Notes: a model not told the origin generated them from the letters alone. DNA of 64,000 nt from Tagaea sp. (GCA_965279525.1 CBDIIB010000004.1:1-64000), one strand, 5' to 3'; positions 33,373 to 62,985 are shown, counted from the stretch's first letter. Made by a program: numbers and translations.

Positions 33373-33449
33373 CGGAGCGTAGCGCAGCCCGGTAGCGCAT
33401 CAGTCTGGGGGACTGGGGGTCGCAGGTTCGAATCCTGTCGCTCCGACCA
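33373..33449 (+). tRNA. tRNA-Pro (anticodon GGG)
   Basis: 77-nt cloverleaf from CGGAGCG to CGCTCCG-ACCA; anticodon loop CTGGGGG, T-arm GGTTCGAATCC, encoded CCA. Confidence 0.95.
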
Positions 33450-33468
33450 AATCGACTAAATAAAACAG

Positions 33469-33497
33469 GGCCCTGGCGAGAGATCGCCAGGGCCTTT
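33469..33497 (+). terminator. Terminator after tRNA-Pro (near-identical copy after the repeat at 44063)
   Basis: ggccctggcga-gaga-tcgccagggcc-ttt. Confidence 0.75.
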
Positions 33498-33619
33498 CTC
33501 ATGCGAGACTATGTGCGGCAGGCGGGAGCGGGATGGGGTGCGTCGATTTGAATTGAACCCGCTTTCACCACGTTGCACGACCAAGCGTTTCAGGAAAGTC
33601 GTACGAGTCATTTGAGGCG

Positions 33620-33895
33620 GCTTTGTCGGACGGCGTGGCGAGAACGAGTTTGAGGTGGCGGGCTGCTCGCTTGATGCCGGTTTCGATGGCGATGCGCGCG
33701 GCCGCTCCATCGCGCGCCTATACGTGTCACAGAGGTGCCTCGCGGACAGGCGTGACGCTTACTCCGAGTTCGTCGGCAAGTTGGCGAAGGCGCAGTGTCT
33801 GTCGAGGCGGAAACCGTCAGGCCATCAGGGCTTTGCGGATGATCCGATAAATCTGCGCGCAGAGAATCTCCTTTCGGTAGGGATCAAGTTCGTTC
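33620..33895 (-). pseudogene. GntR-family regulator pseudogene
   Basis: Reads QIYRIIRKALMA*RFPPRQTLRLRQLADELGVSVTPVREAPL*HV*ARDGAAARIAI: a GntR wHTH with in-frame stops joined to an FCD-like tail. Confidence 0.7.
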
Positions 33896-34018
33896 AAGAC
33901 TGCCGATGAGTTCGGGACGTGGCATGCGTCCGAGCGCAACATTTGCACCCGGAGCGAAAACTTTATGCCATCGGATGTGACCATGAGGATCCGGCTCTCC
34001 AGGCACCCGATTGCCTGA

Positions 34019-34687
34019 TCAGGCGCCAGAGCGTGAATTGAAGATGCCGATCGCGCGACGCGAACGCTCGGCGATGTCTTTCCAGTTTGCCGCTTCGATG
34101 ACGTCGCGCGGTGCGAGCCACGCGCCCCCGGCCGCGAAGCAGTTTTCGAGTGCAAGATAGGTGAGGAAGTTGGCGTCACCGATCCCCCCTGTCGGGCAGA
34201 AGCGGATGTCGGGATAGAGCGGCAGCACGTGCTTCAGCGCCGCGATACCGCCGAACAGATCGGCCGGGAAAAACTTGAGCTCATGAAAGCCATGCTCGCG
34301 CGCGATCAGCATCTCCGACGGCGTGACGGCGCCGGGTATGTACGGCAACCGGATCCCGGCAGCCGCAGCGGCGAGGCGGTCGGTCAGCGCGGGACTTACC
34401 GCGAACTGTGCGCCGGCGTCGCGCGCCTGTGCCAACTGTTCGGGCTTCGTGACGGTGCCCACGCCGACGACAGCTTCGGGGAACGCCTTGCGCATCCGCT
34501 GGATCACCGCCAGCGCGCTGGCACTGCGCAGCGTCACTTCCAAGGCGACCAGTCCACCGCCGACCAGTGCTTCGGCCAACGGTTCGGCATGGTCGGCATT
34601 CTCGACATGCAGGACCGGAATGAGCGGCGGGCGCTTTCCGATCAGGGTGGCGAGCGACGGGCGATCGGTGGTCGAAGCTTCAGTCAT
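34019..34687 (-). CDS. eda: KDPG/KHG aldolase
   Basis: LEVTLRS, VGVGTV, FAVSP, PGAVTPSE, LKFFPA and FCPTGGI. Confidence 0.88.
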   Translation of the reverse strand: MTEASTTDRPSLATLIGKRPPLIPVLHVENADHAEPLAEALVGGGLVALEVTLRSASALAVIQRMRKAFPEAVVGVGTVTKPEQLAQARDAGAQFAVSPALTDRLAAAAAGIRLPYIPGAVTPSEMLIAREHGFHELKFFPADLFGGIAALKHVLPLYPDIRFCPTGGIGDANFLTYLALENCFAAGGAWLAPRDVIEAANWKDIAERSRRAIGIFNSRSGA

Positions 34688-35041
34688 GGAAGTCTCTCTT
34701 TCGGGGAAACTCTGCGGTTTGGCGGGTCGGCCGAGGCGACTGATAGGCCTGTGCCGGAGGGCTACGCATCTTGTCAACCGTCTCCGGTCGCGCCGCAAGG
34801 GCGTAGGCCCGCACAGAATCAGACCAGGGTCGTCGAGGATAAGGTCGCCGATCGCCTGCATAGCGGCAGGCATGCCGCCGGCGAGGCTGGGGGGGGCAAT
34901 ACCTGAGCCGTCGCAGTCCCCGAAGCGCCGTTTGGCGGCACCAAGCATAGCGGCTATGGTCGCGAGGGCGGGGCTTCGGTAATCTACGAATATCTAACAC
35001 CAAGTTCGTCCACACGCGCCTGACGGCCTGACGGCGGGAAC

Positions 35042-36775
35042 ATGAGCAAGAAAATCGAACTGTCGGACCTGCGCAGCCAGCGCTGGTTCGGGGCCGCGGG
35101 CCAGCCCGGCAACCACAAGTCCTATCGCACGAAGCAGATGGGCTTCACGAGCGAGGATTTCCAGAAGAAGCCGGTGATCGGTATCCTCAGCACGTGGTCC
35201 GATCTCAACAGCTGCCATACCCATTTCCCGCAGCGTATCGAGGAAATCAAGCGAGGCGTCTGGCAAGCCGGCGGCTTCCCGGTCGTGATGCCCACACTCA
35301 GCGTCGGCGAGACGTTCGTGCGTCCCAGTACGCTGATCTACCGCAACCTGCTGGCGATCGACGCCGAAGAGATCCTGCGCTCTCACCCGATCGATGGTGT
35401 CGTGCTTCTCGGCGGCTGCGACAAGACGACGCCGGGGCTGGTCATGGGAGCCGCGTCGATGAACATCCCGGCGATCTTCGTGCCGGCCGGCGCCATGCTG
35501 CGCGGCAACTGGCGTGGCCAGACTCTTGGCAGCGGTTCGAGCACCTGGAAAGCGCTTGCCGATTTCCGTGCCGGCAAGATCGACGAGCAGACCTGGCGCA
35601 GCTTCGGCGAGGGGACGTCACGCTCGCCGGGTACCTGCAATGTGATGGGAACCGCCTCGACGATGACGAGCCTCGTCGATGTGTTGGGTTTGACTCTTCC
35701 GGGCGCAAGCTCGATCCCGGCGGTCGATTCCCGGCATTCGCAGATGGCCTCCCTGTCGGGCCGGCGTATCGTCGACATGGTGTGGGAGGACTTGCGCCCA
35801 AAGGCTTTCATCACGGCGAATAGCTTCCGAAACGCCGTCATTGCCGACATGGCGCTGTCGGGGTCGACGAATTCCCTGATCCATCTCGTCGCGATGGCCC
35901 GCCGGCTCGGGCTGGAACTGTCGCTCGATGATTTTGCATCAGCCAGCGAGACTGTTCCGGTCATCTGCAATCTGCAACCCAGCGGCAAGTATCTGATGGA
36001 AGATTTCTATTACGCGGGCGGGCTGCCTGTGCTGCTGTCGCGCCTAAAGGACCATCTCGACCTCTCGTGCATGACCGCGAATGGCCATTCATTGGGCAGC
36101 AATATTGCCGACGCGCAGGTCTACGACGACGATGTCATCCGGCCGGTCGCGGATCCCGTCTATGCCAGCGGGGGGCTTGTCGTGCTGCGCGGGAACCTTG
36201 CGCCTCGTGGTGCGGTTCTGAAGCGCGCGGCGGCCGATCCCAAGCTGCTGCAGCACACCGGCCCGGCGGTCGTGTTCAAGAATTTCAAGGACATGCTTGC
36301 CCGCGTCGATGATCCGGACCTGCAGGTGACAGCCGACAGCGTGCTCGTTTTGCAGGATGGCGGCCCGGTCGGCGGTCCCGGCATGCCGGAATGGGGAATG
36401 CTGCCGATCCCGAAAAAACTGCTGGAGCAAGGCGTGCGCGACATGGTGCGCATCTCCGACGCGCGCATGAGCGGCACGAGCTACGGCACTTGCGTGTTGC
36501 ATGTTTGCCCCGAAAGCCGCGTGGGCGGGCTGCTCGGGTTGGTGCGCGATGGAGATCCGATCCGGCTGGATACGAAGGCGCGCACGCTCGACCTGCTGGT
36601 CGACGTGGCGGAGATCGAGGCCCGTCGCAAGGTCTGGGTCGCTCCGCCGCCGCACTACGAGCGTGGGTACGGTGCACTATTCTCCGAGCACGTGCTGCAG
36701 GCCGATGAAGGCTGCGACCTCGATTTCCTCGCGCGGCCCGGCGACATCCCGGATCCCGAGGCACGCTTCTCCTGA
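35042..36775 (+). CDS. IlvD/Edd-family sugar-acid dehydratase (arabinonate/xylonate-type)
   Basis: LNSCH, LLGGCDKTTP, PGTCNVMGTASTM and SDARMSGTSYG. Confidence 0.88.
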   Translation: MSKKIELSDLRSQRWFGAAGQPGNHKSYRTKQMGFTSEDFQKKPVIGILSTWSDLNSCHTHFPQRIEEIKRGVWQAGGFPVVMPTLSVGETFVRPSTLIYRNLLAIDAEEILRSHPIDGVVLLGGCDKTTPGLVMGAASMNIPAIFVPAGAMLRGNWRGQTLGSGSSTWKALADFRAGKIDEQTWRSFGEGTSRSPGTCNVMGTASTMTSLVDVLGLTLPGASSIPAVDSRHSQMASLSGRRIVDMVWEDLRPKAFITANSFRNAVIADMALSGSTNSLIHLVAMARRLGLELSLDDFASASETVPVICNLQPSGKYLMEDFYYAGGLPVLLSRLKDHLDLSCMTANGHSLGSNIADAQVYDDDVIRPVADPVYASGGLVVLRGNLAPRGAVLKRAAADPKLLQHTGPAVVFKNFKDMLARVDDPDLQVTADSVLVLQDGGPVGGPGMPEWGMLPIPKKLLEQGVRDMVRISDARMSGTSYGTCVLHVCPESRVGGLLGLVRDGDPIRLDTKARTLDLLVDVAEIEARRKVWVAPPPHYERGYGALFSEHVLQADEGCDLDFLARPGDIPDPEARFS

Positions 36776-36791
36776 CCACGCGGCCGAAACG

Positions 36792-37970
36792 TCATACGCG
36801 ATGGACGTCGACCCACTTGCCGAGCTTTGTCGAGGCCAGGCACGCTTCGACGAATGCGAGGCCGTCGGCGCCCTCTTCGGCCATCGGTACGCTCGAAAAA
36901 AGCGGATCGGGCGCCATGTTGAGCCGGCGCGCGGCAACGAGTTCGGCGAAGTCCCGATAGAGATTCGCGAACGCCTCGAAGAATGCTTCCGGATGGCCGG
37001 CGGGAATGCGCGCGGCGGCGCGGGCGAGGGGATGCAGCGTGGGAAGGCCGCGCGTGCGGATCTCGGCCGGGCAGGCATTTCGCATGAAGCGCAATTCATT
37101 TGCCGTGGCCTGCTTCCAGGAAATGCCTCCGGCCTCGCCGTAAGCCTCGATCGACAGCGCGTTCTCGGCACCCGTTGCCGCTTTTGTGACGAACAGGGCA
37201 CCTCGCGCCCCGCCTTCGAGGCGGACGATCACCGATGCCGTGTCGTGTGCGGTACGGCCCGGAATGACCGCCCCGACGTCGGCAAGTACCGCCTCGATCC
37301 GCCGGCCAGTGACATAGCCGACAAGCTGATGCACGTGCGTGCCGATATCGCCGAGTACATGGCTGAGGCCGCCGCGCAGGGGATCGAGCCGCCATCGCAG
37401 CCGGTCGGGGATCTGTTCCGGATGGTCCTCGACGCGCGTGCCGAGCGAGCCCTGCAAATAGGACGCATGGACCACACGCAACTGGCCGATTTCGCCGGCA
37501 GCAATGGCGGCGCGCGCCTCGCGGACCATCGGATAGCCCGAATAGTTGTGCGTGACGCAGAGCAGGCGCTTGCGTGCCTTGGCGCGCGCGACGAGGTCGA
37601 GCGACGAGGCGAGATCGTTGGTCAGCGGCTTGTCACAGATCACGTCGAGTCCGGCATCGAGTGCGAGTGCGGCGTAGCCGTGATGGCTGTCATTCGGTGT
37701 CATGATGGCGACCGCGTCGATCCCGTCGGATCGTGCGGCTTCGCCGGCAACCATCGCCGCCACGCTTTCGTAGCCGCGCGGCAGGCCGAGGCGGGCGGCC
37801 TCCGAGAGCGCCTTATCTTTGTTCGATGACAGCGCGCCGGCGACGATGTCGAAGCATTCGTCGAGGCGTGCCGCGACGCGATGGACGGGACCGATCAACG
37901 CGCCGCTGCCGCCGCCGATGAGGCCGAGGCGCACGCGGCGGCCGAGTTTCGCAAGTGCGGGAGTCGACAT
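36792..37970 (-). CDS. Gfo/Idh/MocA oxidoreductase
   Basis: LGLIGGG.G..IG.VHR, ICDKPL, GDIGTH and PAGHPEAFFEAFANLY. Confidence 0.88.
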   Translation of the reverse strand: MSTPALAKLGRRVRLGLIGGGSGALIGPVHRVAARLDECFDIVAGALSSNKDKALSEAARLGLPRGYESVAAMVAGEAARSDGIDAVAIMTPNDSHHGYAALALDAGLDVICDKPLTNDLASSLDLVARAKARKRLLCVTHNYSGYPMVREARAAIAAGEIGQLRVVHASYLQGSLGTRVEDHPEQIPDRLRWRLDPLRGGLSHVLGDIGTHVHQLVGYVTGRRIEAVLADVGAVIPGRTAHDTASVIVRLEGGARGALFVTKAATGAENALSIEAYGEAGGISWKQATANELRFMRNACPAEIRTRGLPTLHPLARAAARIPAGHPEAFFEAFANLYRDFAELVAARRLNMAPDPLFSSVPMAEEGADGLAFVEACLASTKLGKWVDVHRV

Positions 37971-37981
37971 GTTCGGTTCTC

Positions 37982-38779
37982 TCAGCGCAGGCCGGCGTTC
38001 ACGAGAAGCATCTGTTTGGTGATCATCCGGCTGTCGTCGGCTGCAAGGAACAGTGCGGCATCGGCAACGTCCTGCTCGCGGACCATTTCAGGAATGCATT
38101 GCTGCGCGAGGATGCGGGCTGTCGATTCTGGCGTGTGCCAAAGCCGCATCTGCCGTTCGGTCATCACGGCACCCGGAGCAAGCGCGTTTACGCGGATGCG
38201 GTCGGGACCGAGCTGCCGGGCAAGAGAATTCGTCAACCCGACAATGCCGGCTTTCGCGGCGCTATAGGCTTGGAGGTCGGCGATGCCGCCGACCCATGCG
38301 CCGGAACTGACATTCACGATCGAGCCACCGCCGGCGGCGCGCATCTGCGGGGCGACGGACTGGGCGGCGAAGAAGTGGGGCCGCAGGTTGATGTCGATCG
38401 ACCGATCGAAGCTCTCGGGAGTCACCTCGGCAAAAGGCTGGCGTGAATCGTTTGCCGCGTTGTTGATCAGGATCGTCGCATTGCCGAGCCGCTTTCCGAT
38501 CGCGCCGATGGCCGCCTGGAACGCGGCGATGTCTGTCAGATCGCAATGCGTATAGGTCGGTGCCGTGTGTCCGGCGGCTGCAATTTCGTGCAGGAGCCTC
38601 TCAGCCGGCTCGTCCTGGATGTCCAAAAATGCGACGTGCGCGCCGTTCGCCGCGAACGCTCGTACGATCGCCTCGCCGATCCCCGATGCGCCGCCCGTGA
38701 CGATCGCGACACGACCTGCCAAGCTTGGATAGCGCGCGCCGCCGCCGCGCTTGTCATTTTGCTGATTCATCGGGTACAC
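37982..38779 (-). CDS. SDR, D-xylose/pentose dehydrogenase-like
   Basis: YPSLAGR..IVTGGASGIG, NNAAND.R, YSAAK and PGAVMTERQ..LW, resembling Caulobacter XylB-type enzymes. Confidence 0.78.
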   Translation of the reverse strand: MYPMNQQNDKRGGGARYPSLAGRVAIVTGGASGIGEAIVRAFAANGAHVAFLDIQDEPAERLLHEIAAAGHTAPTYTHCDLTDIAAFQAAIGAIGKRLGNATILINNAANDSRQPFAEVTPESFDRSIDINLRPHFFAAQSVAPQMRAAGGGSIVNVSSGAWVGGIADLQAYSAAKAGIVGLTNSLARQLGPDRIRVNALAPGAVMTERQMRLWHTPESTARILAQQCIPEMVREQDVADAALFLAADDSRMITKQMLLVNAGLR

Positions 38780-38971
38780 GGCTTAGTTTCCGCCAGCACT
38801 ATTGTCAACGGTCCGGCGATGCGGACGATATGCTGGCCGTCTTCCCGCCCTCGAATCATCCGAAGACCGGTCCGGAGACGAACGAGCTCATCCGGACTTC
38901 CCAGGCTCAGTCCGTGTAGGCAGCTTGGCAGCGTATTGACGGAATCCGGGAGAGGCAGCGGTAGGCGGGGT

Positions 38972-40075
38972 TCATGCGATCAAGACGCCCGTGGCCGGAT
39001 CGAAGAGGCAAACACGGCGCATATCGAGGGCAAACCGGCCACGGTCGCCGGGCTGCAGCCGTACGTCGGGCGACACGCGTGCGAGCGCACGCTCGCCGCC
39101 GAGGCGCGCGAGAACGATGGTCTCGGCGCCGGTCGGCTCAGTCATCTCGACGGGCAGTTCGAGGGTGACACGTTCTCCGCCGTGTCCGAACCGGCGATCT
39201 TCCTCCGCGATGCACTCGGGCCGCAGGCCGAGGACGACTTCGCGGCCGGCCTGTGCTGCAAATGCGGCGGGTAACGGCAGTGCAACGGCCGCCTCGCCTT
39301 GGCCGACCACTGCGCGCACTCCGTCCGAGGCGGTTTCGATGCGCGCCGGCAGCGTGTTCATCGGCGGCGCGCCCATGAAGCGCGCCACGAACAGGTTGGC
39401 CGGGCGGTTGTAGACCGTATCGGGGTCGGCGAATTGCTGGATCTCGCCCTGGTGCATCACTGCGATGCGCGTCGCCATCGTCATCGCCTCGATCTGGTCG
39501 TGGGTGACGTAGACATTGGTGGAGCGGATGCGCTGGTGGAGCTGCTTGATCTCCATGCGCATCTCGACGCGAAGCTTGGCGTCGAGGTTCGAGAGCGGCT
39601 CATCGAACAGGAACAGAAGCGGGTCGCGCACCAGCGCGCGACCCATCGCGACGCGCTGGCGCTGGCCGCCGGAGAGTTGCGAGGGCTTGCGGTCGAGCAG
39701 TTTCTCGATCTGGAGGAGGGCGGCGACCCGCGTCACGGCGGCTTCGCGCTCGCCCTTCGGCACGTTCCTGCACTCGAGGCCGAACGTGATGTTCTGGCGC
39801 ACAGTCATCGACGGATAGAGGGCGTAGGTCTGGAACACCATCGCGATGTTCCGGTCCTTGGGCGCAATGTCATTGACGATCCGGCCGCCGATCTCGACCG
39901 TACCGCCCGTCGCGGGTTCCAGACCGGCGATGATGTTCAGCAATGTCGACTTGCCGCAGCCCGATGGCCCGACCAGTACGGTGAACTCGCCGTTCTCGAT
40001 TTCCATGTCGATACCCTTGAGCACGGACATCGCCCCGAAGGACTTGGTTACACCGCTGAGACTGAGGGCCGACAT
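38972..40075 (-). CDS. Sugar ABC transporter ATPase (MalK/UgpC family)
   Basis: GPSGCGKST, LSGGQRQR, DEPLSNLDAKLR and a C-terminal TOBE domain. Confidence 0.92.
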   Translation of the reverse strand: MSALSLSGVTKSFGAMSVLKGIDMEIENGEFTVLVGPSGCGKSTLLNIIAGLEPATGGTVEIGGRIVNDIAPKDRNIAMVFQTYALYPSMTVRQNITFGLECRNVPKGEREAAVTRVAALLQIEKLLDRKPSQLSGGQRQRVAMGRALVRDPLLFLFDEPLSNLDAKLRVEMRMEIKQLHQRIRSTNVYVTHDQIEAMTMATRIAVMHQGEIQQFADPDTVYNRPANLFVARFMGAPPMNTLPARIETASDGVRAVVGQGEAAVALPLPAAFAAQAGREVVLGLRPECIAEEDRRFGHGGERVTLELPVEMTEPTGAETIVLARLGGERALARVSPDVRLQPGDRGRFALDMRRVCLFDPATGVLIA

Positions 40076-40085
40076 TGAGATACTC

Positions 40086-40958
40086 CTACTTCACCGCGCC
40101 GGCCGTCAGCCCGCGCAGGAAGTATTTTCCGCCGAAAAGATAGACGAGCAACGTCGGCAATGCCGCGAGGACGACGGCCGCACTCTGCACGCCGTATTGG
40201 GGAACGTCGGCGATGGCCGCGTTGAGCCCGATTAGCGCCGCCGTCACCGGCTGCTGGCTGCCGTTCGTGAAGGTCACGCCGTAGAGAAACTCGTTCCAGA
40301 TATGGGTGAACTGCCAGATCACCGTCACGATCAGGATCGGCGGCGACAGCGGCAGCACAATCCTGAAGAAGGTACGGAAGAAGCCTGCGCCGTCGATGCG
40401 GGCGGCCTTCATCAGGTCCTGCGGAATGGAGACGTAGTAGTTGCGGCAGAACAGCGTGGTGAAGCTCATACCCTGAATTGTGTGGATCAGGACGAGTCCC
40501 GTTAGCGTGTTGATGAGGCCGATGTCGCGCAGGACGAAGGTCCAGGGAATCAGTCGTACCTGCTGCGGCAGGAAAATCCCGAGCGTGACCAATCCGAAGA
40601 TCCATGTGTCGCCGCGGAAGCGCCACAGCGAAATCGCATAGCCGGCGACCGCTCCCAGCAGAGTCGAGACGATGGTGGCGGGTATCGTCACCGCGGCCGA
40701 GTTCCACATGAAGGGCTGCAGCCCGGTGCAGGTCTGCGCGACGCAGAATTCCGACCACGCTTCGGCGTAGTTGGGGAAGGCCCAGCTTTCAGGCCATCCG
40801 ATCATCGAGCCTTGGGCGATCTCCTGCGCCGTGCGTAGCGAGTTGAGTACAACGACGAGGAAAGGCACGAGGAAGGCCAGGCCAAGGGCCCAGACCACCA
40901 CATGCGCCAGCAGCCGCCCCCAGGCGGGCATCGTGTCGGGCGTGGTCCGCTCAAGCAT
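40086..40958 (-). CDS. Sugar ABC transporter permease
   Basis: Hydrophobic segments; KAARIDGAG EAA-like loop; WNEFLYG. Confidence 0.9.
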   Translation of the reverse strand: MLERTTPDTMPAWGRLLAHVVVWALGLAFLVPFLVVVLNSLRTAQEIAQGSMIGWPESWAFPNYAEAWSEFCVAQTCTGLQPFMWNSAAVTIPATIVSTLLGAVAGYAISLWRFRGDTWIFGLVTLGIFLPQQVRLIPWTFVLRDIGLINTLTGLVLIHTIQGMSFTTLFCRNYYVSIPQDLMKAARIDGAGFFRTFFRIVLPLSPPILIVTVIWQFTHIWNEFLYGVTFTNGSQQPVTAALIGLNAAIADVPQYGVQSAAVVLAALPTLLVYLFGGKYFLRGLTAGAVK

Positions 40959-53822: not shown

Positions 53823-55421
53823 ATGAACGCTGTCTCGCGCGCAGTTGCGCTCTCAAGCCTTCGTCGCATCGTGCACGGTACTTGCGCCGCTTTCCTGCTG
53901 GCGCTGCCGGCCCTGGCAGCGGACCTGACGATCGGCGTGCCGATCACGCCGACGAGCATGGATCCGCACTATCACAACGTCTCGCAGAACATCAGCCCGC
54001 TGTCGCACGTGCTTGAGCCGCTGGTGTTCGTCGAGGGCACGAAGGACCTGTCGCCAGCGCTCGCTGTGTCGTGGCGCGCGATCGACGACAAGACGTGGGA
54101 ATTCAAGCTGCGGCCGGGCGTCAAGTTCCACGACGGCTCGGATTTCACCGCCGAAGACGTCGCCTTCACGCTCCGCCGCGTTCCGAAGGTCCCGAATCCG
54201 CTGGCGTCGTCGACGATCTTCACGCGCAGCATCGCGGAGATCATCGTCGTCGATCCGATGACCGTTCACCTGAAGACGATCTACCCTGACGCCGAATTGC
54301 CGGTGAACATGTCGCAGCTGCTGGTTTTGTCGCACAAGGCGGCGGCCGGTCCTGCGGCCGAAGGCAAGACGACCCAGCAGCTCAATGCAGGCGAAGGCCT
54401 GATTGGTACTGGCCCTTATAAGTTCGTCGGCTTTACGCCCGGCGAGCGCGTCACCGTCACGGCGAACCGGAATTACTGGGGCAAGGCGCCGATGTGGGAC
54501 AACGTGACGCTCAAGGTCATCACGTCGGACGCGACGCGTACGGCGGCGGTGCTGTCGGGTGAGATCGATGCAGCAATGGTACCAGGGGAGAGCCTCGACC
54601 GACTGAAAGCGAGCCCGAACGTCAAGGTAACCACCGGAGACACGTGCTTCTTCGTCTATCTGGCGATGGACCAGTTCGAGAAGACCGCGACCGTCACCGG
54701 CACGGACGGCAGGAACCCGCTACGCGATCCGCGCGTACGGCGCGCGCTGTCGCTGGCGATCGATCGAAATGCGATCTCGCAACGCGTGTTGCTGGGCCTG
54801 GCGAAGCCGACGGCCGAGCTCGGGCCGGCTTCCATCTTCGGGACCACGCCCGGCGTCACGCCCGATCCTTTTGATCTCGACCAGGCGCGGAAACTGCTCG
54901 CGGAAGCGGGCTATCCGCAGGGTTTCGGCATCACGCTGCATACCCCGTCCGGCGTATTCGTCGGCGACACCCAGATCGGCCAGGCGGTTGCCGCAATGTG
55001 GACGCGCGCTGGCGTCAAGACGACAGTCGAGAGCGTCGTCAGTTCGCAGTTCTATTCCCGTCGCAACAACCGAGACTACAGCGCTTACGCGACGAACTTC
55101 TGCCCCTACACGGGCCAGATGTCGTACTCGGTCCGCCTGCTCGGCATGACGCGCGACCTGCCAAAGGCGAACGGGACGATCAACGTGTCGGGCTATTCGA
55201 ATCCGCAAGTCGATAGGCTGATCACCGAGGCGCTCGCGACCGTCGACGACGCAAAGCGGGCGGCCCTCGTTCAGCAGGCCAGCAAGATTGTCGTCAAGGA
55301 CGAGCATGCGGTGCTTTCGCTCGTTCAACTTGGCTACGTCTACGCCACCAAGAAGAACCTGACGCTGCGCACCCGGATGGATACATATCTAACGGCTATG
55401 CAGATCACGCCGGACGGCTGA
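53823..55421 (+). CDS. ABC transporter substrate-binding protein, family 5 (DppA-like)
   Basis: Signal peptide; PALA.SW....WEFKLRPGVKFHDGSDFTAEDV and IGTGPYK. Confidence 0.9.
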   Translation: MNAVSRAVALSSLRRIVHGTCAAFLLALPALAADLTIGVPITPTSMDPHYHNVSQNISPLSHVLEPLVFVEGTKDLSPALAVSWRAIDDKTWEFKLRPGVKFHDGSDFTAEDVAFTLRRVPKVPNPLASSTIFTRSIAEIIVVDPMTVHLKTIYPDAELPVNMSQLLVLSHKAAAGPAAEGKTTQQLNAGEGLIGTGPYKFVGFTPGERVTVTANRNYWGKAPMWDNVTLKVITSDATRTAAVLSGEIDAAMVPGESLDRLKASPNVKVTTGDTCFFVYLAMDQFEKTATVTGTDGRNPLRDPRVRRALSLAIDRNAISQRVLLGLAKPTAELGPASIFGTTPGVTPDPFDLDQARKLLAEAGYPQGFGITLHTPSGVFVGDTQIGQAVAAMWTRAGVKTTVESVVSSQFYSRRNNRDYSAYATNFCPYTGQMSYSVRLLGMTRDLPKANGTINVSGYSNPQVDRLITEALATVDDAKRAALVQQASKIVVKDEHAVLSLVQLGYVYATKKNLTLRTRMDTYLTAMQITPDG

Positions 55422-55425
55422 AGCG

Positions 55426-56316
55426 ATGTCGAACAAGGTCATCCTAACCTGCGCCGTTACGGGAGCAGGCGATACGGGGCTCAAGTATCCGGCCGTACCG
55501 GTGACGCCGGCGCAGATCGCGGATGCATCGATTGAAGCGTGCCGGGCGGGGGCTGCGATCGCGCATATCCATGTGCGCGATCCCAAGACCGGCAAGCCGA
55601 GCATGGACGTTGCGCTCTATCGCGAGGTTGTCGAGCGCATCCGCGACAGCGGCTGCGACGTGGTGATCAACCTTACGACCGGGCCGGGAGCCCGCTTCGT
55701 GCCTTCGGACACGATGCGCAATACGGCGGCGGACGGTTCGAACCTTCGCCCGCCGCTCGAGCGTGTGACGCACATAATCGAGCTCAAGCCAGATATCTGC
55801 AGTCTTGACATGGGGAGCCTAAATTTCGGATCCGGCACCCTGATCAACGTCCCTCGGCACGTCGAGGTCATGGCCGAAGCGATCCGCAAAGCAGGTGTGA
55901 TGCCTGAGCTTGAGGTTTTCGATACCGGCCACATCGCGCTCGCACTGGACATGATGAAGCGCGGCCTGCTGGATAAGTCCTCGCTGTTCCAGGCCGTGCT
56001 CGGTGCTCCGTGGAGTGCTCCGGCCACTCCGGAAACTATGATGCTGATAAAGCAACTGATGCCGCCGGGTACACCCTGGGCGGCATTCGGTGTCGGGCGC
56101 TGGCAGTTTCCGATGCTCGCCCAGGCATTGCTGCTCGGCGGCCATGTGCGGGTCGGTCTTGAAGACAATCTCTACCTGGAGAAGGGCGTGCTGGCGCCGA
56201 GCAACGCCGCCCTTGTCGAGTGCGGTGTCAAGATCATGCGTTCACTCGGCTTCGAGCCGGCCACGCCGACGGAAGCTCGGCGCATTCTGCGAATTGGGAC
56301 GCCGGCGACGATCTGA
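55426..56316 (+). CDS. Beta-keto acid cleavage enzyme (BKACE/DUF849, Kce family)
   Basis: ILTCAVTG, AGAAIAHIHVRDP and GGHVRVGLEDN. Confidence 0.9.
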   Translation: MSNKVILTCAVTGAGDTGLKYPAVPVTPAQIADASIEACRAGAAIAHIHVRDPKTGKPSMDVALYREVVERIRDSGCDVVINLTTGPGARFVPSDTMRNTAADGSNLRPPLERVTHIIELKPDICSLDMGSLNFGSGTLINVPRHVEVMAEAIRKAGVMPELEVFDTGHIALALDMMKRGLLDKSSLFQAVLGAPWSAPATPETMMLIKQLMPPGTPWAAFGVGRWQFPMLAQALLLGGHVRVGLEDNLYLEKGVLAPSNAALVECGVKIMRSLGFEPATPTEARRILRIGTPATI

Positions 56317-56475
56317 TCTGTGATTGGGTCGGTCTGGTTGCGAGTCCCGGTTCCTTTGTGATGCCTACCTCGATATCCGCGGAGTCCTGAGGCGGCCCAG
56401 CGTCGCTCGACCGCAGTTGATTTTACGAACTGAATTGCCAGCACCTTCATGGCTTTCGACTAATTTTCATTGCTG

Positions 56476-56594
56476 TTAGTTTCCACTCGTTTCCCTTAAA
56501 TGCAGATAATTTTGGAAACTGCCATTGAAATCATTGAATAAACAGAAGTCTGGGGGACTGGGGGTCGCAGGTTCGAATCCTGTCGCTCCGACCA
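56476..56594 (+). repeat. attR-like site 2: conserved arm plus tRNA-Pro 3' half (56547-56594)
   Basis: Identical tRNA 3' half; arm gtttccactcgtttcccttaaatgc...cattgaaatcattgaata. Confidence 0.92.
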
Positions 56595-56702
56595 TCAAAG
56601 AAGCCCGCCGCCGGGAGACCGGTCGGCGGGCTTTACCGTTTTGGGCAACCATGGGAATGTGGAAATCAATAGTTTGCCTTAGCACAATCTTGGGGAGGGG
56701 AT

Positions 56703-57245
56703 ATGTTCGAGCGGGTTTGGAAAGGATTGGCTAGTGCTATGCTGGTCGGCTTGCTGTTCGTGGCACCGATACGACCGGTGCTTGCAGACGGCACCGTCTG
56801 CGTCTGGCATGGGGATAGTCCGGCTTTCCGCGCCGACGTTGAGGGGGCCGCTAACCAGTTCCGTAACAATCCGGGCGTTCGCCGCAGCGTAGTCGGCGGC
56901 ACCGTAGATGTGGCCCACGCAGCTTTTATTGAAATGACGCGTGTTACTGAATTGCTAGCCACAATCATCGTGAACAACATCCGGGTGATCGAAGATTCCA
57001 TGACGTATGTGGCACGGGCCTCTATCCGAGCGGAGTCCGAGAAGGGCCATTTCAACGAGATAAACCTCTATAAGGGCTATTGCCGGGCCTTCCCGCCAGA
57101 TACCGAAGTGCAATACTGGGTGCAGAAGTGGACGACCGGGTGGGACGGCTTCTGCCATGGCTGGATCAAGGTCGTCGACGGATCGTGGACAAACGTCTAT
57201 CTCTCCGGCACCGTGTTCAATTCCAGTTGCTACATAGTGATTTGA
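56703..57245 (+). CDS. Secreted 4-Cys protein, paralogue A
   Basis: RBS ggaggg and signal peptide ending VLA-D; motifs shared with 57966 and 58522. Confidence 0.78.
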   Translation: MFERVWKGLASAMLVGLLFVAPIRPVLADGTVCVWHGDSPAFRADVEGAANQFRNNPGVRRSVVGGTVDVAHAAFIEMTRVTELLATIIVNNIRVIEDSMTYVARASIRAESEKGHFNEINLYKGYCRAFPPDTEVQYWVQKWTTGWDGFCHGWIKVVDGSWTNVYLSGTVFNSSCYIVI

Positions 57246-57389
57246 ACGACATCTGGAAATTGTGCTCCGTCAGCGACATCGTTAGCTAACGGGATATTAC
57301 GGGCGCTGCCCATTGGCTCACTGCCCATGCGACGGCCTCCGCGCGACGAGTTGTACCTCCGCGGAGGCCGGTCCCTTAAAGATCAGTTG

Positions 57390-57711
57390 GCGCTGCGCAA
57401 ATGGATTGCTGCCGTCGGTGCGAAGACTGCCTACATCGAACCTGGCAGCCCCTGGGAGAACGGCTACTGTGAGAGCTTCAACGGCAAGCTGAGAGACGAG
57501 CTGCTCAACGCGGAGATCTTCTACAGCCTGAAGGAGGCCAAGACCGTCATCGAGGCCTGGCGGCGGCACTACAACACGATCCGTCCGCACTCATCGCTTG
57601 GCTATCGACCACCGGCGCCGGAAGCGCTGGTCATGCCGGTAGCCACGGCAATGGCGCAAACGGCACGACTAAACCAACATCCGTAACGGGCCACTCGGTG
57701 GGGGCCGGTCA
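57390..57711 (+). mobile_element. IS3-family remnant (transposase C-terminus plus right end)
   Basis: LRKWIAAVGAKTAYIEPGSPWENGYCESFNGKLRDELLN...YNTIRPHSSLGYRPP; terminal ...ggccggtCA at 57711. Confidence 0.8.
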
Positions 57712-57930
57712 CCGGTGCGATCCAGGGCTGGCCAGTGCCCGAGGCGCGCCTGTTCCTGAAAGACCTCACCGAACACGCCACCCAGCTCGAATCTGTCTAT
57801 GCCCACCGCTGGCGGCTGCACGACCTGGTGATCCGGGACAGCCGGGCGGTCATGCACCGGCCCCGGCGCTACGACCACAACAAGCCCCGCGACATGCGCC
57901 GCACGACTGTCGCCGACAGCGCACCGCTGC
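57712..57930 (+). pseudogene. TauD/TfdA dioxygenase C-terminal fragment
   Basis: GWPVPEARLFLKDLTEHATQ...YAHRW..HDLVIRDSR.VMHR...PRDMRRTTV begins immediately after the IS end. Confidence 0.7.
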
Positions 57931-57965
57931 TGGCGCGGCCGCTCAGAGCGGCTGGGATCGCCGCC

Positions 57966-58493
57966 TCAGTTCACCTTCGCATTAGGCGAGAATTCGCAGC
58001 TGGTCTTGATCCACGGCCCGGTCATCATCATCGTGACGTCGCCCGTCATCGTCACGCCGTGGGCGCAGATTTCGTGCCAGCCGGAGCGTTCGATCTGTGC
58101 GTAGACGTTGACGGCCGTTCCAGCCGGGAACGACCGGCAGAAATACTCGGAATAGAGCAGCGTCTCCCAGTGGCTGCCCTCGCCGGGCCCTCTGATATAG
58201 GCACGCCCGGTATAGGCGTTCATGACATCGGCCATCCACACGACGCCGACGAGACCCAGATAGCCGCGCACCTCGTCGATTGCCAGCTGGTTGGCGTACA
58301 TGTCAGAGATGCCGCGGACATTTGAATTGGCGCCCGTGTTTAGGATGCACAGCCGGTAAGTGCCGGGTAGCGGTTGTGTCACACGGTTCTTCGGCCAGTC
58401 AAACGGCGTCGGAACCGTCTGCGCGTACGCACCGGCCGCGATGCCAAGAACGAGAGCGAGCGCGGCGAGCCGCGTCGTGAAAATCCGATGCAT
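57966..58493 (-). CDS. Secreted 4-Cys protein, paralogue B (175 aa)
   Basis: RBS aaggag; signal peptide AYA-Q; closely similar to 58522-59049. Confidence 0.82.
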   Translation of the reverse strand: MHRIFTTRLAALALVLGIAAGAYAQTVPTPFDWPKNRVTQPLPGTYRLCILNTGANSNVRGISDMYANQLAIDEVRGYLGLVGVVWMADVMNAYTGRAYIRGPGEGSHWETLLYSEYFCRSFPAGTAVNVYAQIERSGWHEICAHGVTMTGDVTMMMTGPWIKTSCEFSPNAKVN

Positions 58494-58521
58494 CTTTGCG
58501 GCGTCTCCTTGCGTCGGAATT

Positions 58522-59049
58522 TCAGCGCGTCAGCGTCGCCCCGGCCGAGTAGGCGCATTTGGGCGAGGCCACGTTTCCGGTCAGCATCACCGTGGTGTCC
58601 TTGTTCATCTGGAAGTCGTGGAAACAGATCTCGCGCCAACCGCCCCGATCGATCTGGGTATAGACGCTGACCAGCGTTCCGGCCCGAAAGGAACGGCAGG
58701 CATACTCGCTGTAGAGAAGCTCCACCCAGTGGCCGGTTTCGCCCGGCTGCTTCATGAAGATGCGGCCGATATACAACAACAGGGGATCCAACGCGTAGCC
58801 GGCGGCCCATGCCTCGAGATTGTTGCGCACACCGCCGATCGAGAGCTGGTTGGCGCCGAGGCCGTCGATGCCGTTCGTGGTGGTGTTCGGCCCCACGTTG
58901 AACACGCACATGCGGAAGGCTCCGTTGGCCGGTGCCGTCAGCGTGTTCTTGGGCCAGTCCTGCGGCGTGGGAATCTGCGCGTGCACGCCGGCCGCCATGC
59001 AGAAGACAAGGGAGAGGGCGAGAGTAAGTGTCGCGATCGTCCGGCGCAT
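58522..59049 (-). CDS. Secreted 4-Cys protein, paralogue C (175 aa)
   Basis: Start MRRTIATL at 59049; signal peptide VHA-Q; shares PTP.DWPKN and LLYSEY.CRSF.AGT.V.VY.QI.R.GW.EIC with paralogue B. Confidence 0.82.
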   Translation of the reverse strand: MRRTIATLTLALSLVFCMAAGVHAQIPTPQDWPKNTLTAPANGAFRMCVFNVGPNTTTNGIDGLGANQLSIGGVRNNLEAWAAGYALDPLLLYIGRIFMKQPGETGHWVELLYSEYACRSFRAGTLVSVYTQIDRGGWREICFHDFQMNKDTTVMLTGNVASPKCAYSAGATLTR

Positions 59050-59089
59050 TGCGGGATTCCTATTTTGAAGTTGGCATTTCTTGCAGCGT

Positions 59090-61042
59090 TCAGCGCACCA
59101 GCAGGCGTGCCGCGTCCTCGAACATGCGGCGCAGACGCGTGGGCTCGGCCCATTCCTCCAGATCGATGTCCCCGGTACGCACGCCGCGGAACAGCATGTT
59201 GCGGTCCATGTGGCGTAGCGCCAGTAACTGGTTGGGCCAAAGGCCACCTAGGTCCATGACGGCCTTAGCACGCACCTGGCGCAACGCCTCGGGTTCGTCG
59301 CGCCCGCTCTGGGCAAGGCTTCGGTCCAGCTCGCCCAGATTGGCGTCGAATCCTGTTACGCGGCGCGGCGTCAGAAGGATGATGACCGACTTGGTGTAGT
59401 CGCGCCCGGTGCGGCGCTGGAAGAAGTACTGCAGCCCGGGAATGTCGCGCAGCACCGGTACGCCGCTCGACGTCGAGGTGATCTCGCGCTCGCTGAGGCC
59501 GGACAGGATCAGCGTCTCGTCGAAGCGCAGTCGGACATTGGCCGCGACCATGTTGCGCGATGTCTGGACGGACTGCGTGAAGGTCGCCGACGCGGCCGTC
59601 GTCTCGAAGAAGGAGCGCGCCGCCTTGACGCTGACCAGCATCGAATCATCATCGATGAAGGTGGGCGTCACCGAGAGGCTGACGCCCACCGGTTTGTCGT
59701 TGATCGTGCCGCCGCCCTGCGTGCTTACCAGCGCCACCGACACAGTCGACCCTGAGAAGAACTGAGCCGCCTGCCGGTCGAGCGCGAGAAGGCTCGGCCG
59801 CGCGATGATGTCGGCACTCTGGTCCGACGCATTGGCGATGTTGAGCGAGTAGCTGATACCGCCGCCGCTGGTCGTGCCGAGCGACAGAACGTCGGCGACT
59901 GAACCGGTGCGTGTCGTCGAGCTATTCGTTCCACGCGTTTGGTTGAGCGTACGTGAGACAAAGACGTTGAGGTTGTCGAGGAGGTTTACACCGTAGCCGT
60001 ACGACGTGACGTCGTCTGAACGCAGCAGCACGGCGTCGATCACCGCCATGCGCGGCATCGCGGAGCCGCGGCATGGGGCGGGAAGGGCGGGAAGGGCGAC
60101 GGTTTCGTCGCCGGTGGGCGATGAACTGTAGCCGGATGAACTTGCACCGCCATAGCTCGGGTTCGCCTGCTGCTGGTTGATTGCCTGCTGGCAGTCGAAC
60201 CAGGCCGGCGCGACTGGACCGCCAGCCGACGCCGTCGTCGGGGCGCCTGCGGCCGCAGCGGGTGTCATGGGCGCAGACGGGGACGTCACAGGCGCTGCCG
60301 GAGCCTGGGCCAGCAACGTTTCGCGGACGCTCTGCCATTGGCCGATCCGCCTCTCCATAATCTGACGCGTCGGCTCGTCGACTCCGGCCTCGGAGAGGAT
60401 GGTGTTGCTGCGCTCTTGCAGGCCAGCGGCGGCATAGATGAGCGAAGCGCTTGCCGCGACGCGCGCATTGTCCGGCTTTGCGAGCGACCGCGCGCGTTCG
60501 GTCGCCCACAGCGCCAGGTCGAAATCGCCGGCACCGTACGAAGCGGCAGCGAGAAGTCGGAGCGCTTCGACACTGTCCCCTTCAATGTCCAGGACGTATG
60601 CAGCGACACGCTGTGCCGCGGCATGGCGACCGATCTCCAGATAGAGGCGGGTAAGCTGAATGCCTGCAGCGACAAAATCGCGGCGCTGGTCGAGGGCAGC
60701 GAGGTAGCCAGTCTCGGCGAGTTCGGCGTAACCTCGATCACCGGCACGCACGCGTAGGTGATAGGAGAGCGCGTTCATGTGGTTGAGCGCGGCATTGCGC
60801 GGGTCGTTCTGGAGCGCTAGGGAGAACGCCCGATTGGCTTCCGCCGCGTCGCCTCGGGCGATGGAGTCGAGCCCACGTTGGGCGGCCTGAGCGGCCGCTC
60901 CTCGGGCTCGCTCGATGCGGATCGGCTCAAAGTTGGGGCCGAGCGCAACCTGATCGTGCGCGCACCCGGCGAGCACCGCTACGACTGCGGTAGCCAGACC
61001 CCAACTACTGAAGATGCTTGACTTGATCGCGATTCGCACCAT
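59090..61042 (-). CDS. Lipoprotein TPR-secretin fusion
   Basis: Lipobox VLAGC, TPR-like repeats, a Pro/Ala/Ser linker, then a secretin domain (IIARPSLLALD.Q.AQFFSG, VGVSLSVTP, ETLILSGL, SGVPVLRDIPGLQYFF...SVIILLTPR). Confidence 0.82.
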   Translation of the reverse strand: MVRIAIKSSIFSSWGLATAVVAVLAGCAHDQVALGPNFEPIRIERARGAAAQAAQRGLDSIARGDAAEANRAFSLALQNDPRNAALNHMNALSYHLRVRAGDRGYAELAETGYLAALDQRRDFVAAGIQLTRLYLEIGRHAAAQRVAAYVLDIEGDSVEALRLLAAASYGAGDFDLALWATERARSLAKPDNARVAASASLIYAAAGLQERSNTILSEAGVDEPTRQIMERRIGQWQSVRETLLAQAPAAPVTSPSAPMTPAAAAGAPTTASAGGPVAPAWFDCQQAINQQQANPSYGGASSSGYSSSPTGDETVALPALPAPCRGSAMPRMAVIDAVLLRSDDVTSYGYGVNLLDNLNVFVSRTLNQTRGTNSSTTRTGSVADVLSLGTTSGGGISYSLNIANASDQSADIIARPSLLALDRQAAQFFSGSTVSVALVSTQGGGTINDKPVGVSLSVTPTFIDDDSMLVSVKAARSFFETTAASATFTQSVQTSRNMVAANVRLRFDETLILSGLSEREITSTSSGVPVLRDIPGLQYFFQRRTGRDYTKSVIILLTPRRVTGFDANLGELDRSLAQSGRDEPEALRQVRAKAVMDLGGLWPNQLLALRHMDRNMLFRGVRTGDIDLEEWAEPTRLRRMFEDAARLLVR

Positions 61043-61072
61043 GGCTTATTTTCATATCAAGGAGCGAGCGTC

Positions 61073-61252
61073 ATGAACACCACCTTCGTGCTGCTGTTAA
61101 CTTTTTTCACTGCAAACAACCCACCGACGGCCGCCCTTGCGCACGAGTTTGACGGGAAGGCCGCCTGCGAGCAAGCCGGTCGAGCGGCGTCGGACGGCTT
61201 CCGACACGCGGCACACATTCAGGTCCGCTATGTCTGCGTACCGAAGGCCTGA
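61073..61252 (+). CDS. Small 59-aa protein with hydrophobic N-terminus and 2 Cys (absent from the ORF track)
   Basis: RBS aaggag; MNTTFVLLLTFFTANNPPTAALAHEFDGKAACEQAGRAASDGFRHAAHIQVRYVCVPKA. Confidence 0.6.
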   Translation: MNTTFVLLLTFFTANNPPTAALAHEFDGKAACEQAGRAASDGFRHAAHIQVRYVCVPKA

Positions 61253-61428
61253 ATGCATCGAACATGGCTGCGCCGGTATGCCGATTGCCGGTGGCCGAGG
61301 TGGTGATCGCTCTTTGCTGAAGGATGGGTTCTTAGCTAATTTGAGTATTCGTTCTGTTCTCGGAATCGGTTGCATTGACGCCAATCGACGAACGCGACGT
61401 CGGAGATTTTGTACATTGGAGGCGACTG

Positions 61429-61878
61429 GTGCTGGCAAAATTGAGCTGCCTTGTGATCGCGGTACTTGCGTCGTATTCGCTACCGGTTTTGGCGCAAGGC
61501 GCAGCCCAATGCCTTCGGCCGGACGTACTAAGCCGCAATCAGCGCTGCATGATGAATGTCTGCTCCCAGACCGTGACGTTGTGGCACTGCTTTCCGGACT
61601 CTGATGGGCCGCTCGGATGCGCGGCGACAGACGGTGGCGCCTTCACAGTGATTGCACCGGGCTATTGCGCGGATATGCATGTCGGCTACGAGAACGCGCT
61701 CGTCTCGAAGCCCATCCGATACTCAGCGTGTCTCGGCGCCAATACTGTCCGCCATGTGGTGCGTGGCACCAGCGTCACCTGCTCCGATCCCCAGGAGAAC
61801 GCAGGAACACGCGGTTTGCCCGCACTTCCCGGACGCCTGCCCCTGCCGGTCTACACGCATTACCATCCGCTGAACTGA
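61429..61878 (+). CDS. Secreted Cys-rich protein (8 Cys in the mature part)
   Basis: ggagg RBS before GTG at 61429; signal peptide ending VLA-Q. Confidence 0.62.
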   Translation: MLAKLSCLVIAVLASYSLPVLAQGAAQCLRPDVLSRNQRCMMNVCSQTVTLWHCFPDSDGPLGCAATDGGAFTVIAPGYCADMHVGYENALVSKPIRYSACLGANTVRHVVRGTSVTCSDPQENAGTRGLPALPGRLPLPVYTHYHPLN

Positions 61879-61888
61879 CGACGACTAA

Positions 61889-62767
61889 ATGCGTCTTCGG
61901 TCCGTCTTTGTTGCCGTAGTGTTGGCATTTTCTGCCGGCGGAGTTCTGGCGCAGTCGCCGGACCGCCCGCCTGCGGAACTTGTACAAGGGCGTACCGAGT
62001 TCGCGCGCAAGAACTTCAACGGTGCATACTTATTGCTGCTGCCCTTCGCCCATCGCGGAAATGCCGAGGCTCAGTTTCTGCTTGGCCGGATGTCGGACGA
62101 GGGAGGGGGCGGGATCGCGCTAGATCCGCGCGAGGCCGCGCGCTGGTACCGGCAGGCGGCATCGCTCGACTATGCGCCCGCGCACTATATGCTCGCGATG
62201 GCGTATGCGACGGGACGCGGCGTGACACAGACGCCGACGCTGGCGCTCGATCATCTCGAGAAAGCGGCAAGTCTTGACTACACGCCAGCGATCCTCGATC
62301 TCGCATCACTTTACGACGATGGCCGCGGCGTCGAGCCGGATCGTCCACGCGGCTATGCCCTGTTCCGGCGCGCGGCCGATCTCGGCAATACCGAGGCGCG
62401 CTTTGTCGTCGGCGAACGGCTGACGAGCGGCGACGGGACGGATCCCAATCGGGACGAGGCGCGCCGCTGGTACCAGCTCGCCGCCGGCCGTGGCCATCCG
62501 GGCGCCATGTTCCGGTTGGCGCAGATCGGCTATGGGCTCGACAAGGGCAACGATTCACGTGTCGTCGCCTATGCGTTCCTCACTCTCGCGATGCAGCGAG
62601 GTGCTTCCTATATTCGCGGCGAGGCGCAGAAGCTGCGAGACCAGCTCGCGCGCACGATGATCCAGACAGATATCGATCAGGCAATGCAGCGCGTGCGCAG
62701 TTGGAAACCGTCTCCCCCTATGCCGGGCGACGCATTCGATCCGGACGACCCCTATAACAGTCCTTAG
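61889..62767 (+). CDS. Sel1-repeat exported protein
   Basis: Signal peptide; repeats such as GNAEAQFLLG, EAARWYRQAA and Y..GRGV. Confidence 0.88.
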   Translation: MRLRSVFVAVVLAFSAGGVLAQSPDRPPAELVQGRTEFARKNFNGAYLLLLPFAHRGNAEAQFLLGRMSDEGGGGIALDPREAARWYRQAASLDYAPAHYMLAMAYATGRGVTQTPTLALDHLEKAASLDYTPAILDLASLYDDGRGVEPDRPRGYALFRRAADLGNTEARFVVGERLTSGDGTDPNRDEARRWYQLAAGRGHPGAMFRLAQIGYGLDKGNDSRVVAYAFLTLAMQRGASYIRGEAQKLRDQLARTMIQTDIDQAMQRVRSWKPSPPMPGDAFDPDDPYNSP

Positions 62768-62806
62768 GACGCATGATGCGCGAGGCGTGATCCGATCTGG
62801 CTGCGC

Positions 62807-62925
62807 TTGGTTTCCACTCGTTTCCCTTAAATGCCGGAAAATACGGAAAATGACATTGAAATCATTGAGATTTAGGAAAGCTGGGGGACTGGGGGTCGCA
62901 GGTTCGAATCCTGTCGCTCCGACCA
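62807..62925 (+). repeat. attR-like site 3: conserved arm plus tRNA-Pro 3' half (62881-62925)
   Basis: Identity to the tRNA starts exactly at the anticodon loop CTGGGGG; same arm upstream. Confidence 0.92.
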
Positions 62926-62985
62926 TCAAAGAAGCCCGCCGCCGGGAAGCCGGTCGGCGGGCTTTGAAGTCTTCGACGAAAACCT

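Follow-up and report, generated by a model that had tools for sequence, protein, structure and literature searches.

The closest described counterparts of the locus reported here are tandem arrays at tRNA or tmRNA genes in which some units lack an integrase, arrangements already set out in two earlier reports (PMC3146451; 10.1101/2020.12.28.424599). At the ssrA gene of Dehalococcoides, 16 islands have an integration module and 15 do not, and the latter were suggested to be cis-mobilizable by accretion (McMurdie et al. 2011, PMC3146451). The same article portrays the cis-mobilizable elements (CIMEs) of Streptococcus as having functional att flanks and no recombination or transfer genes, and as being moved together with a neighbouring integrase-bearing element (PMC3146451); for the tycheposons of Prochlorococcus, successive integrations at a tRNA site are described as pushing older elements distally (Hackl et al., 10.1101/2020.12.28.424599). 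Here we describe a tandem array at a tRNA-Pro(GGG) gene of Tagaea sp. (genome G000, contigs C1–C5), located in the first 64,000 nucleotides of contig C4 (C4:1-64000), the whole of which is referred to as the window. We propose, with moderate confidence, that it is an orphaned array of non-autonomous islands, passengers of the CIME kind, and that it owes its construction to a family of tyrosine-integrase islands specific to the genus.

The sole tRNA gene in the window is tRNA-Pro(GGG), which was found by ARAGORN and with which Rfam concurs (60.5 bits); the positions of this gene and of the other features are listed in Table 1. Its last 48 nt (33402-33449), starting two bases before the anticodon loop and running to the 3’ end, form a core that has four matches in the window, against none expected from 100 shuffles, with spacings of 10614, 12531 and 6331 bp between successive copies. 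Two of the three displaced copies are identical to the tRNA and the third has two mismatches, being exact over 62881-62925. Since its last 48 nt are the repeated core, the tRNA gene is the putative attL of the array. Immediately upstream of each displaced core is an arm of ~97 nt that is unlike the 5’ half of the tRNA, and arm and core together share 78-86% identity over 145 nt. The arms are AT-rich (GC content 0.34-0.45 amid 0.63-0.67 for the region) and enriched in TTTCC/GGAAA motifs, with 12 of the 131 occurrences in the window falling inside the three arms, which together cover 294 nt, an enrichment that fits putative arm-type binding sites. An Rfam scan of 30000-64000 (E<=0.1) yields nothing besides the tRNA, and the arm belongs to no known RNA family. 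An earlier reading of this DNA from its sequence alone (the sequence-only reading) had noted direct repeats of the tRNA-Pro 3’ half with these positions and spacings, and described the units as bounded by att-type repeats and devoid of an integrase; our repeat and recombinase searches agree on each count.

The array extends well beyond the window. Using BLAST and an nhmmer profile of the arm plus core, we found further copies on the same strand at C4:84837-84956 (86 bits) and C4:121010-121134 (99 bits), together with weak same-strand relics at C4:99670-99719 and C4:125338-125371. The array thus spans from 33.4 kb to at least 121 kb of C4, with weaker copies continuing to ~121-125 kb, and of the limits proposed previously (33373-62965) the start holds and the end does not. 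There is no synteny with relatives over C4:121135-140423, and the conserved sequence that returns at ~C4:140.4 kb is found, in the relative G019, at a distance of over 2 Mb from the tRNA-Pro locus. Because that sequence lies so far from the tRNA in relatives, synteny does not allow us to place the distal limit of the array, and the far side of the hotspot has been rearranged between species. An isolated degenerate copy of arm and core is present at C5:689479-689616 on the minus strand with no tRNA-Pro beside it; within ~15 kb of this copy there is DNA with homology to array units at tRNA-Pro in G005 (74.8% identity, 7.9 kb) and G011, which suggests that part of an array was translocated here.

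No tyrosine or serine recombinase is found in the units, in agreement with the sequence-only reading. In six-frame searches of the whole genome PF00589 has ten matches in G000, the nearest at C4:286 kb and so none in the array; PF00239 has two matches, both on C2 and none on C4, and PF00665 (rve) has no match in the array. Pfam scans of the units agree. One of the other tyrosine recombinases belongs to a second island system at tRNA-Pro(CGG) (C3:89801-89877), which has a repeat of the tRNA 3’ end ~100 kb downstream (C3:189361-189410) and, right after the tRNA, a recombinase gene at C3:90005-90550 on the minus strand (PF00589, E 2e-18). By tblastn it is unrelated to the integrase that we find at tRNA-Pro(GGG) in relatives, which is described below.

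We searched for the 145-nt arm plus core in 60 relatives, 20 of which form, with G000, the same-genus set. Full copies of arm and core are present in many same-genus genomes, and matches to the tRNA part only are found across the class, as a conserved tRNA would lead one to expect. We searched five relatives with PF00589 and rebuilt the locus for four of them (G005, G007, G011 and G019), and there is a weak PF00589 match directly after the tRNA in G019, G007 and G005. In G019 it corresponds to a 410-aa open reading frame (ORF) that starts ~40 nt after the tRNA (PF00589, E 1.8e-12) and in which a box I Arg, a His-x-x-Arg motif and a C-terminal Tyr can be read by eye. Eight of the 20 relatives (G019, G007, G006, G005, G014, G008, G020 and G001) have a homologue with 57-100% identity, and in all eight the gene lies within ~40-145 nt of the tRNA-Pro 3’ half, one per genome at the site and at the head of the array. 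Head units with the integrase (in G019, G007 and G005) and units without it end in the same arm plus core. A genome-wide search for a tyrosine recombinase beside the same arm, as had been recommended, identifies a cognate integrase in relatives and none in G000. Remoter homologues (37-42%) adjoin another tRNA-Pro gene in four genomes.

Comparison of the integrase with plasmid and phage collections reveals distant relatives alone, at no more than 36% identity locally, and no named close relative; the nearest are distantly related phage-type integrases, including those of EBPR podovirus 2 and Brucella phage BiPBO1 (~27% identity over 90% of the length). With an archaeal XerA/integron-integrase model, for which the cut-off is 220 bits, the score is 19.8, leaving the generic PF00589 match alone, and an NCBIfam scan of the integrase and three small neighbouring ORFs gave nothing useful and identified no excisionase. 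The head unit of G019 is 29.7 kb long and encodes the integrase, small uncharacterized ORFs, a DUF3223 protein, an AAA ATPase and metabolic or metal cargo, with no conjugation, phage or replication gene among the 20 ORFs scanned. The integrase and its att sites make up a new family, from a genus that has received little study, and among the matches listed in a search of the Tagaea literature no title concerns genomic islands.

The cognate integrase has no homologue in G000, where the best tblastn match has 25% identity and lies beside tRNA-Phe on C3, nor is there an integrase relic anywhere in this genome at tblastn E<=10 or a match at E<=1 to the P’ sequence from the left end of the integrase elements. 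It is also missing from the single-contig genome G011, by PF00589 and homologue searches, and from G012, G013, G016 and G017 (at E<=1e-20), which have strong arm copies and fragmented assemblies. The sequence-only reading had interpreted the array as an integron-like platform served by an integrase acting in trans. In such a scheme free circles lacking an integrase, each with one arm plus core, would be added singly, at the tRNA or at att sites within the array, by an integrase from elsewhere. The scheme draws on real likenesses to integrons and to CALINs (clusters of attC sites without an integron integrase): there is at most one recombinase per array, at the head or not at all, followed by a row of many units that share an end site, and the newest unit is presumed to be proximal. 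The six genomes with arrays and no integrase (G000, G011, G012, G013, G016 and G017), and a swap of unit order between G000 and G019 described below, also count in its favour. We nevertheless regard it as distinctly unlikely. The integrase is absent from G000 altogether rather than supplied in trans, and in relatives it is in cis at the array head, where insertion of a circle at the tRNA would part it from the tRNA; it abuts the tRNA in eight of eight integrase-positive genomes. The array has no IntI with attI and Pc, no attC hairpins and no promoterless single-gene cassettes, its units being multi-gene operons of 6-22 kb with their own terminators and regulators (IclR, KdpD, RpiR) and its site being part of a tRNA with a lambda-type arm. 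Integration by lambda Int normally needs a P’ arm, and the integrase-less units are without one.

We compared the 90 nt after each core across five arrays (G000, G005, G007, G011 and G019), and each unit consists of the tRNA 3’ part, its own terminator, cargo operons and the ~97-nt P arm. The left ends are of two kinds. In the three integrase-positive arrays the integrase elements begin with a hairpin, T_int, followed by three direct GTTTCC repeats (a P’-type arm) and then the integrase gene. The integrase-less units mostly begin with a different hairpin, T2, or with T1 in units 1 and 2 of G000 and one unit of G007, and no integrase-less unit in the five arrays has the three-repeat P’ arm. T2 also follows the tRNA in the integrase-free G011, and it looks like the native terminator of the tRNA. 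Because the T2 and T1 left ends differ from T_int with its P’ arm, the integrase-less units are not integrase elements from which the gene has merely been deleted.

The integrase elements have nonetheless left traces. Three ghost units of ~185 nt in G019 each consist of a core, T_int, a fused P’/P arm and a degenerate core. All three immediately follow an arm plus core that is well preserved, and G007 has one partial ghost unit. These ghosts indicate that the integrase element came to the site more than once and that deletion can occur between the repeats of its own arms. When the integrase was compared with the five arrays by tblastn we recovered three full-length head copies and no relic in the other units; the remaining matches are three short ones that correspond to the P’ repeats of ghost units and scattered ones at E 0.059-8.1. 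The best of these, just after a displaced core in G005 (39% identity over 38 aa, E 0.059), was considered as a possible integrase relic and rejected as noise, as it showed no extension when the segment was searched alone.

These observations bear on a rival explanation, in which every unit arrived as an integrase-bearing island and the older copies lost the integrase by deletion. Tycheposons provide a precedent, with serial integration, distal displacement of older elements and degenerate remnants (10.1101/2020.12.28.424599). The ghost units demonstrate that deletion can reduce an integrase element at this site to its arms, and if two direct copies of an integrase are unstable then selection would favour arrays with a single copy. 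We consider such ordinary decay unlikely all the same. Beyond the three head copies the five arrays contain no degraded integrase of the sort that decayed islands would have been expected to show; the integrase-less units have T2 or T1 from the first base after the core and no P’ repeats, which deletion of a gene alone cannot yield; and deletion of the ghost type takes the cargo as well.

The arrays differ extensively between genomes. The profile of arm plus core identifies 31 non-tRNA copies in the five arrays (ten in G019, six in G007, five in G005, three in G011 and seven in G000), all on the tRNA strand. In G005, G007, G011 and G019 synteny of the upstream flank holds as far as the tRNA, after which the sequence differs. 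The arrangement is thus not a fixed one, and a comparison of cassette content and order between strains, as had been suggested, shows that both differ among relatives. Unit 4 of G000 (62926-84956) corresponds to two separate units of G019, designated B and A, at 92.3% and 90.7% identity and in reversed order, the flank being 89-90% identical. At its internal junction (76709-76715) an arm and most of a core have been lost by a deletion between two copies of a 7-nt microhomology, and unit 4 is a fusion of two units that are separate in G019. Further along, G000 99863-111462 corresponds to the last unit of G007 from just after the core and terminator to just before the arm (79.6%), the weak relic noted above at 99670-99719 sits where this comparison predicts a boundary, and 111512-113973 matches G011.

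The tRNA-proximal units have a more scattered distribution. The halves of unit 1 are found in relatives at 85-92% identity; they adjoin each other in G008 and G012, whereas G019 has them at two separate loci. For unit 2 the 20 same-genus genomes contain nothing above ~73% over at most 2 kb, and of unit 3 only the secretin gene (79%) and insertion sequence (IS) fragments recur, the secretin match in G015 lying ~1.3 kb downstream of its tRNA-Pro half. We also note that at C1:2426500-2433500 of G019 sequence homologous to the first half of unit 1 (86%) begins ~100-200 nt after a displaced 3’ end of a CGG-type tRNA-Pro, and that the sequence just upstream of this displaced core resembles the arm; the same cargo is thus found at the left unit end in arrays of two different tRNA-Pro genes.

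A further possibility is that no site-specific activity has acted on these units: the arm-plus-core copies would be old scars, and gain, loss and reordering of units would come about solely through RecA, acting on pairs of the 130-145-bp repeats or on homologous DNA entering the cell. The length of the repeats suffices for homologous recombination, the junction in unit 4 lost its arm through microhomology, for which no integrase is needed, and G000 keeps three near-perfect sites with no integrase to act on them. We think it very unlikely, however, as it explains neither the terminator right after the core and the P arm at the end of each unit nor the constant position of the integrase at the head; moreover, cores that are exact over 48 of 48 positions beside arms with ~80% identity suggest that exchange or selection has had the core as its focus.

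We therefore return to the proposal of an orphaned array of passengers. Integrase-bearing islands, or drivers, would dock on the anticodon-loop side of the tRNA, with crossover at the anticodon-loop edge of the core, as inferred from the start of the identity there. The attL of a driver could pair with its own attR or with any attR downstream, so that it would leave either alone or together with neighbouring integrase-less units, a process of accretion and mobilization. A driver that arrived with passengers and later excised alone would leave the passengers flush with the tRNA, and repeated rounds would stack units with the newest nearest the tRNA; in G000 the driver would have departed or was never kept. 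This model accounts for the fact that no array has more than one integrase and that the gene, where present, is at the head, as well as for the absence of relics, the native-type terminators of the passengers and the integrase-free arrays. The array in G000 is probably frozen and immobile now, except for homologous recombination between the repeats.

The order of units in the array is partly in keeping with this growth. The sequence-only reading had placed the newest unit nearest the tRNA, and in support of it the shared units A and B lie farther from the tRNA than lineage-specific units do, in G000 and G019 alike, and the three tRNA-proximal sites are the best preserved in G000, which fits growth at the tRNA end. 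Several considerations weigh against it and against the model as a whole. Nothing distal to units A and B is common to G000 and G019, and the arm scores are not monotonic with distance from the tRNA (99 bits at 121 kb against 86 bits at 84.8 kb). The arms are mutually just ~75-85% identical, and their identity within a genome (0.79) is barely above that between genomes (0.77), giving no clear signal of concerted evolution; they could be mere decaying relics. The integrase-less units are without the three-repeat P’ arm that the left end of the driver carries, the model offers no origin for the P arm on the right side of a passenger, and we infer mobility solely from genome comparison at the level of species. 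Finally, G000 is 97% complete in five contigs and might have an integrase on unassembled DNA. The position 3’ of tRNA-Pro(GGG) is assembled and free of an integrase both in G000 and in the single-contig G011.

A more specific variant, which we put forward only tentatively and think rather improbable, is a two-component delivery system in which a small family of driver islands would shuttle structurally distinct passengers, drop them at tRNA-Pro and depart, the passengers being purpose-built (a tRNA 3’ part, a native-type terminator, operons and a P arm) rather than being decayed islands.

Set against recognized classes, the locus has an intact tRNA with direct repeats of its 3’ part at the other end of each unit in the window, and variable content beyond a flank that is conserved up to the tRNA, as in tRNA-associated islands; the tyrosine integrase expected beside the att site is absent in G000 and present in 8 of 20 same-genus relatives, in the head unit only. 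As in CIMEs, the units are flanked by att sites of an integrase-bearing family and lack recombination and transfer functions, in units 1-3 and in the 20 larger ORFs scanned in units 4-7, with an IS3 fragment as the only mobility-related item. CIMEs are described, however, as deletion derivatives of integrative and conjugative elements that are mobilized by conjugative elements, whereas no conjugation genes were seen in the Tagaea integrase element and the left ends of the integrase-less units are unlike its own.

The Dehalococcoides islands provide a close parallel. As described in PMC3146451 they too are tandem, within ~100 kb downstream of one small-RNA gene, with direct repeats of its 3’ end and conserved sequence just upstream of these; the integration module is at the left edge (the attL side) and the islands lack transfer genes of their own. 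They differ in their CcrB-like large serine recombinase, tmRNA target and 20 bp repeat, and in that many units keep the integration module (PMC3146451), whereas the Tagaea arrays have a tyrosine integrase, a 48-nt tRNA core preceded by a ~97-nt arm, and never more than one integrase each. Tycheposons likewise use tyrosine recombinases at tRNA genes, leave partial tRNAs and carry non-conjugative cargo in hypervariable islands; they are reported to have replication modules and remnants with fragmented integrases (10.1101/2020.12.28.424599), neither of which was found in the ORFs and arrays scanned here. Tycheposons are marked by their own type of integrase together with a replication module (helicase or primase); beside its integrase the head unit of G019 shows just the AAA ATPase and DUF3223 genes.

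The cargo of the units is unrelated, and the description of it in the sequence-only reading as sugar catabolism, aromatic-type catabolism and a secretin module is borne out by Pfam scans of units 1-3. Unit 1 encodes a KDPG aldolase, an ILVD/EDD dehydratase, a GFO/IDH/MocA oxidoreductase, a short-chain dehydrogenase/reductase (SDR) and a sugar ABC transporter (ATPase, permease and substrate-binding protein). In unit 2 there are an FAA-hydrolase family protein, an HgmA/cupin dioxygenase-like protein, an IclR regulator, two SDRs, a flavin reductase, a BKACE protein and an ABC transporter with Dpp/Opp-type permeases and a substrate-binding protein. The unit 2 transporter cluster also contains two adjacent paralogous ORFs on the minus strand (52019-52984, 321 aa, and 52855-53643, 262 aa) with motifs conserved between them and no Pfam or NCBIfam match. 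Unit 3 has several ORFs with no assigned family in addition to those in Table 1, and an NCBIfam scan of six unassigned ORFs in the window gave nothing useful. The rve_3 fragment in unit 3 was overlooked in the sequence-only reading; there are four copies of it in G018, and in G012 it lies ~130 nt from a copy of the arm. The 20 larger ORFs scanned in units 4-7 include an FAD oxidoreductase, a Dpp transporter, KdpD, a P-type ATPase, a CheB/CheR hybrid kinase, PgaA/PgaB-like proteins, an RpiR regulator, ABC transporters and an arabinofuranosidase, and Pfam finds no conjugation or phage gene among them.

Table 1. Features of the tRNA-Pro(GGG) array of Tagaea sp. G000 (positions in the window unless stated otherwise) and ghost units of G019.
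Feature	Position	Strand	Basis and remarks
Intact tRNA-Pro(GGG)	33373..33449	+	ARAGORN, Rfam
Unit 1 cargo	33450..43918		10.5 kb; GC 0.644 vs 0.670 in upstream flank; Pfam
T1 terminator hairpin, directly after tRNA at left end of unit 1	33450..33498	+	96% identical at 44064-44112
P-type arm, unit 1	43919..44015	+	GC 0.43; TTTCC / GGAAA motifs; conserved TTGAAATCATTGAA block
Displaced tRNA 3’ part (core), end of unit 1	44016..44063	+	48/48
Unit 2 cargo	44064..56449		12.4 kb; T1-type terminator at start; Pfam
P-type arm, unit 2	56450..56546	+	GC 0.34
Displaced tRNA 3’ part (core), end of unit 2	56547..56594	+	48/48
Unit 3 cargo	56595..62780		6.2 kb; T2 (native-type) terminator hairpin at start
IS3-family transposase fragment	57327-57683	+	Pfam; rve_3, 119 aa, truncated, E 3.6e-31
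Secretin with TPR	59093-61042	-	Pfam
Sel1-repeat protein	61889-62764	+	Pfam
P-type arm, unit 3	62781..62877	+	GC 0.45
Displaced tRNA 3’ part (core), end of unit 3	62878..62925	+	46/48, exact from 62881
Start of unit 4 (T2 terminator, then cargo)	62926..64000		Continues outside the window to C4:84956
G019 ghost units	C1 of G019, rebuilt-region positions 39569-39755, 54301-54487, 62414-62598		Profile and left-end comparison

Taken alone, the locus reveals no new principle and is a new example of a known mode of stacking acquired genes. It nonetheless concentrates more than 85 kb of adaptive cargo in one hotspot, including sugar and aromatic-type catabolism, Kdp potassium uptake, biofilm genes for poly-N-acetylglucosamine (PNAG), transporters and a secretin. 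Should the delivery of purpose-built passengers prove correct, these arrays would grow in an integron-like manner with multi-operon units, docking at a tRNA through a tyrosine integrase of the lambda type. The hotspot has been remodelled in every compared species of the genus, and its states, with the driver present, reduced to a 185-nt ghost or absent, form an unusually clean natural series on how integrase-less islands move.

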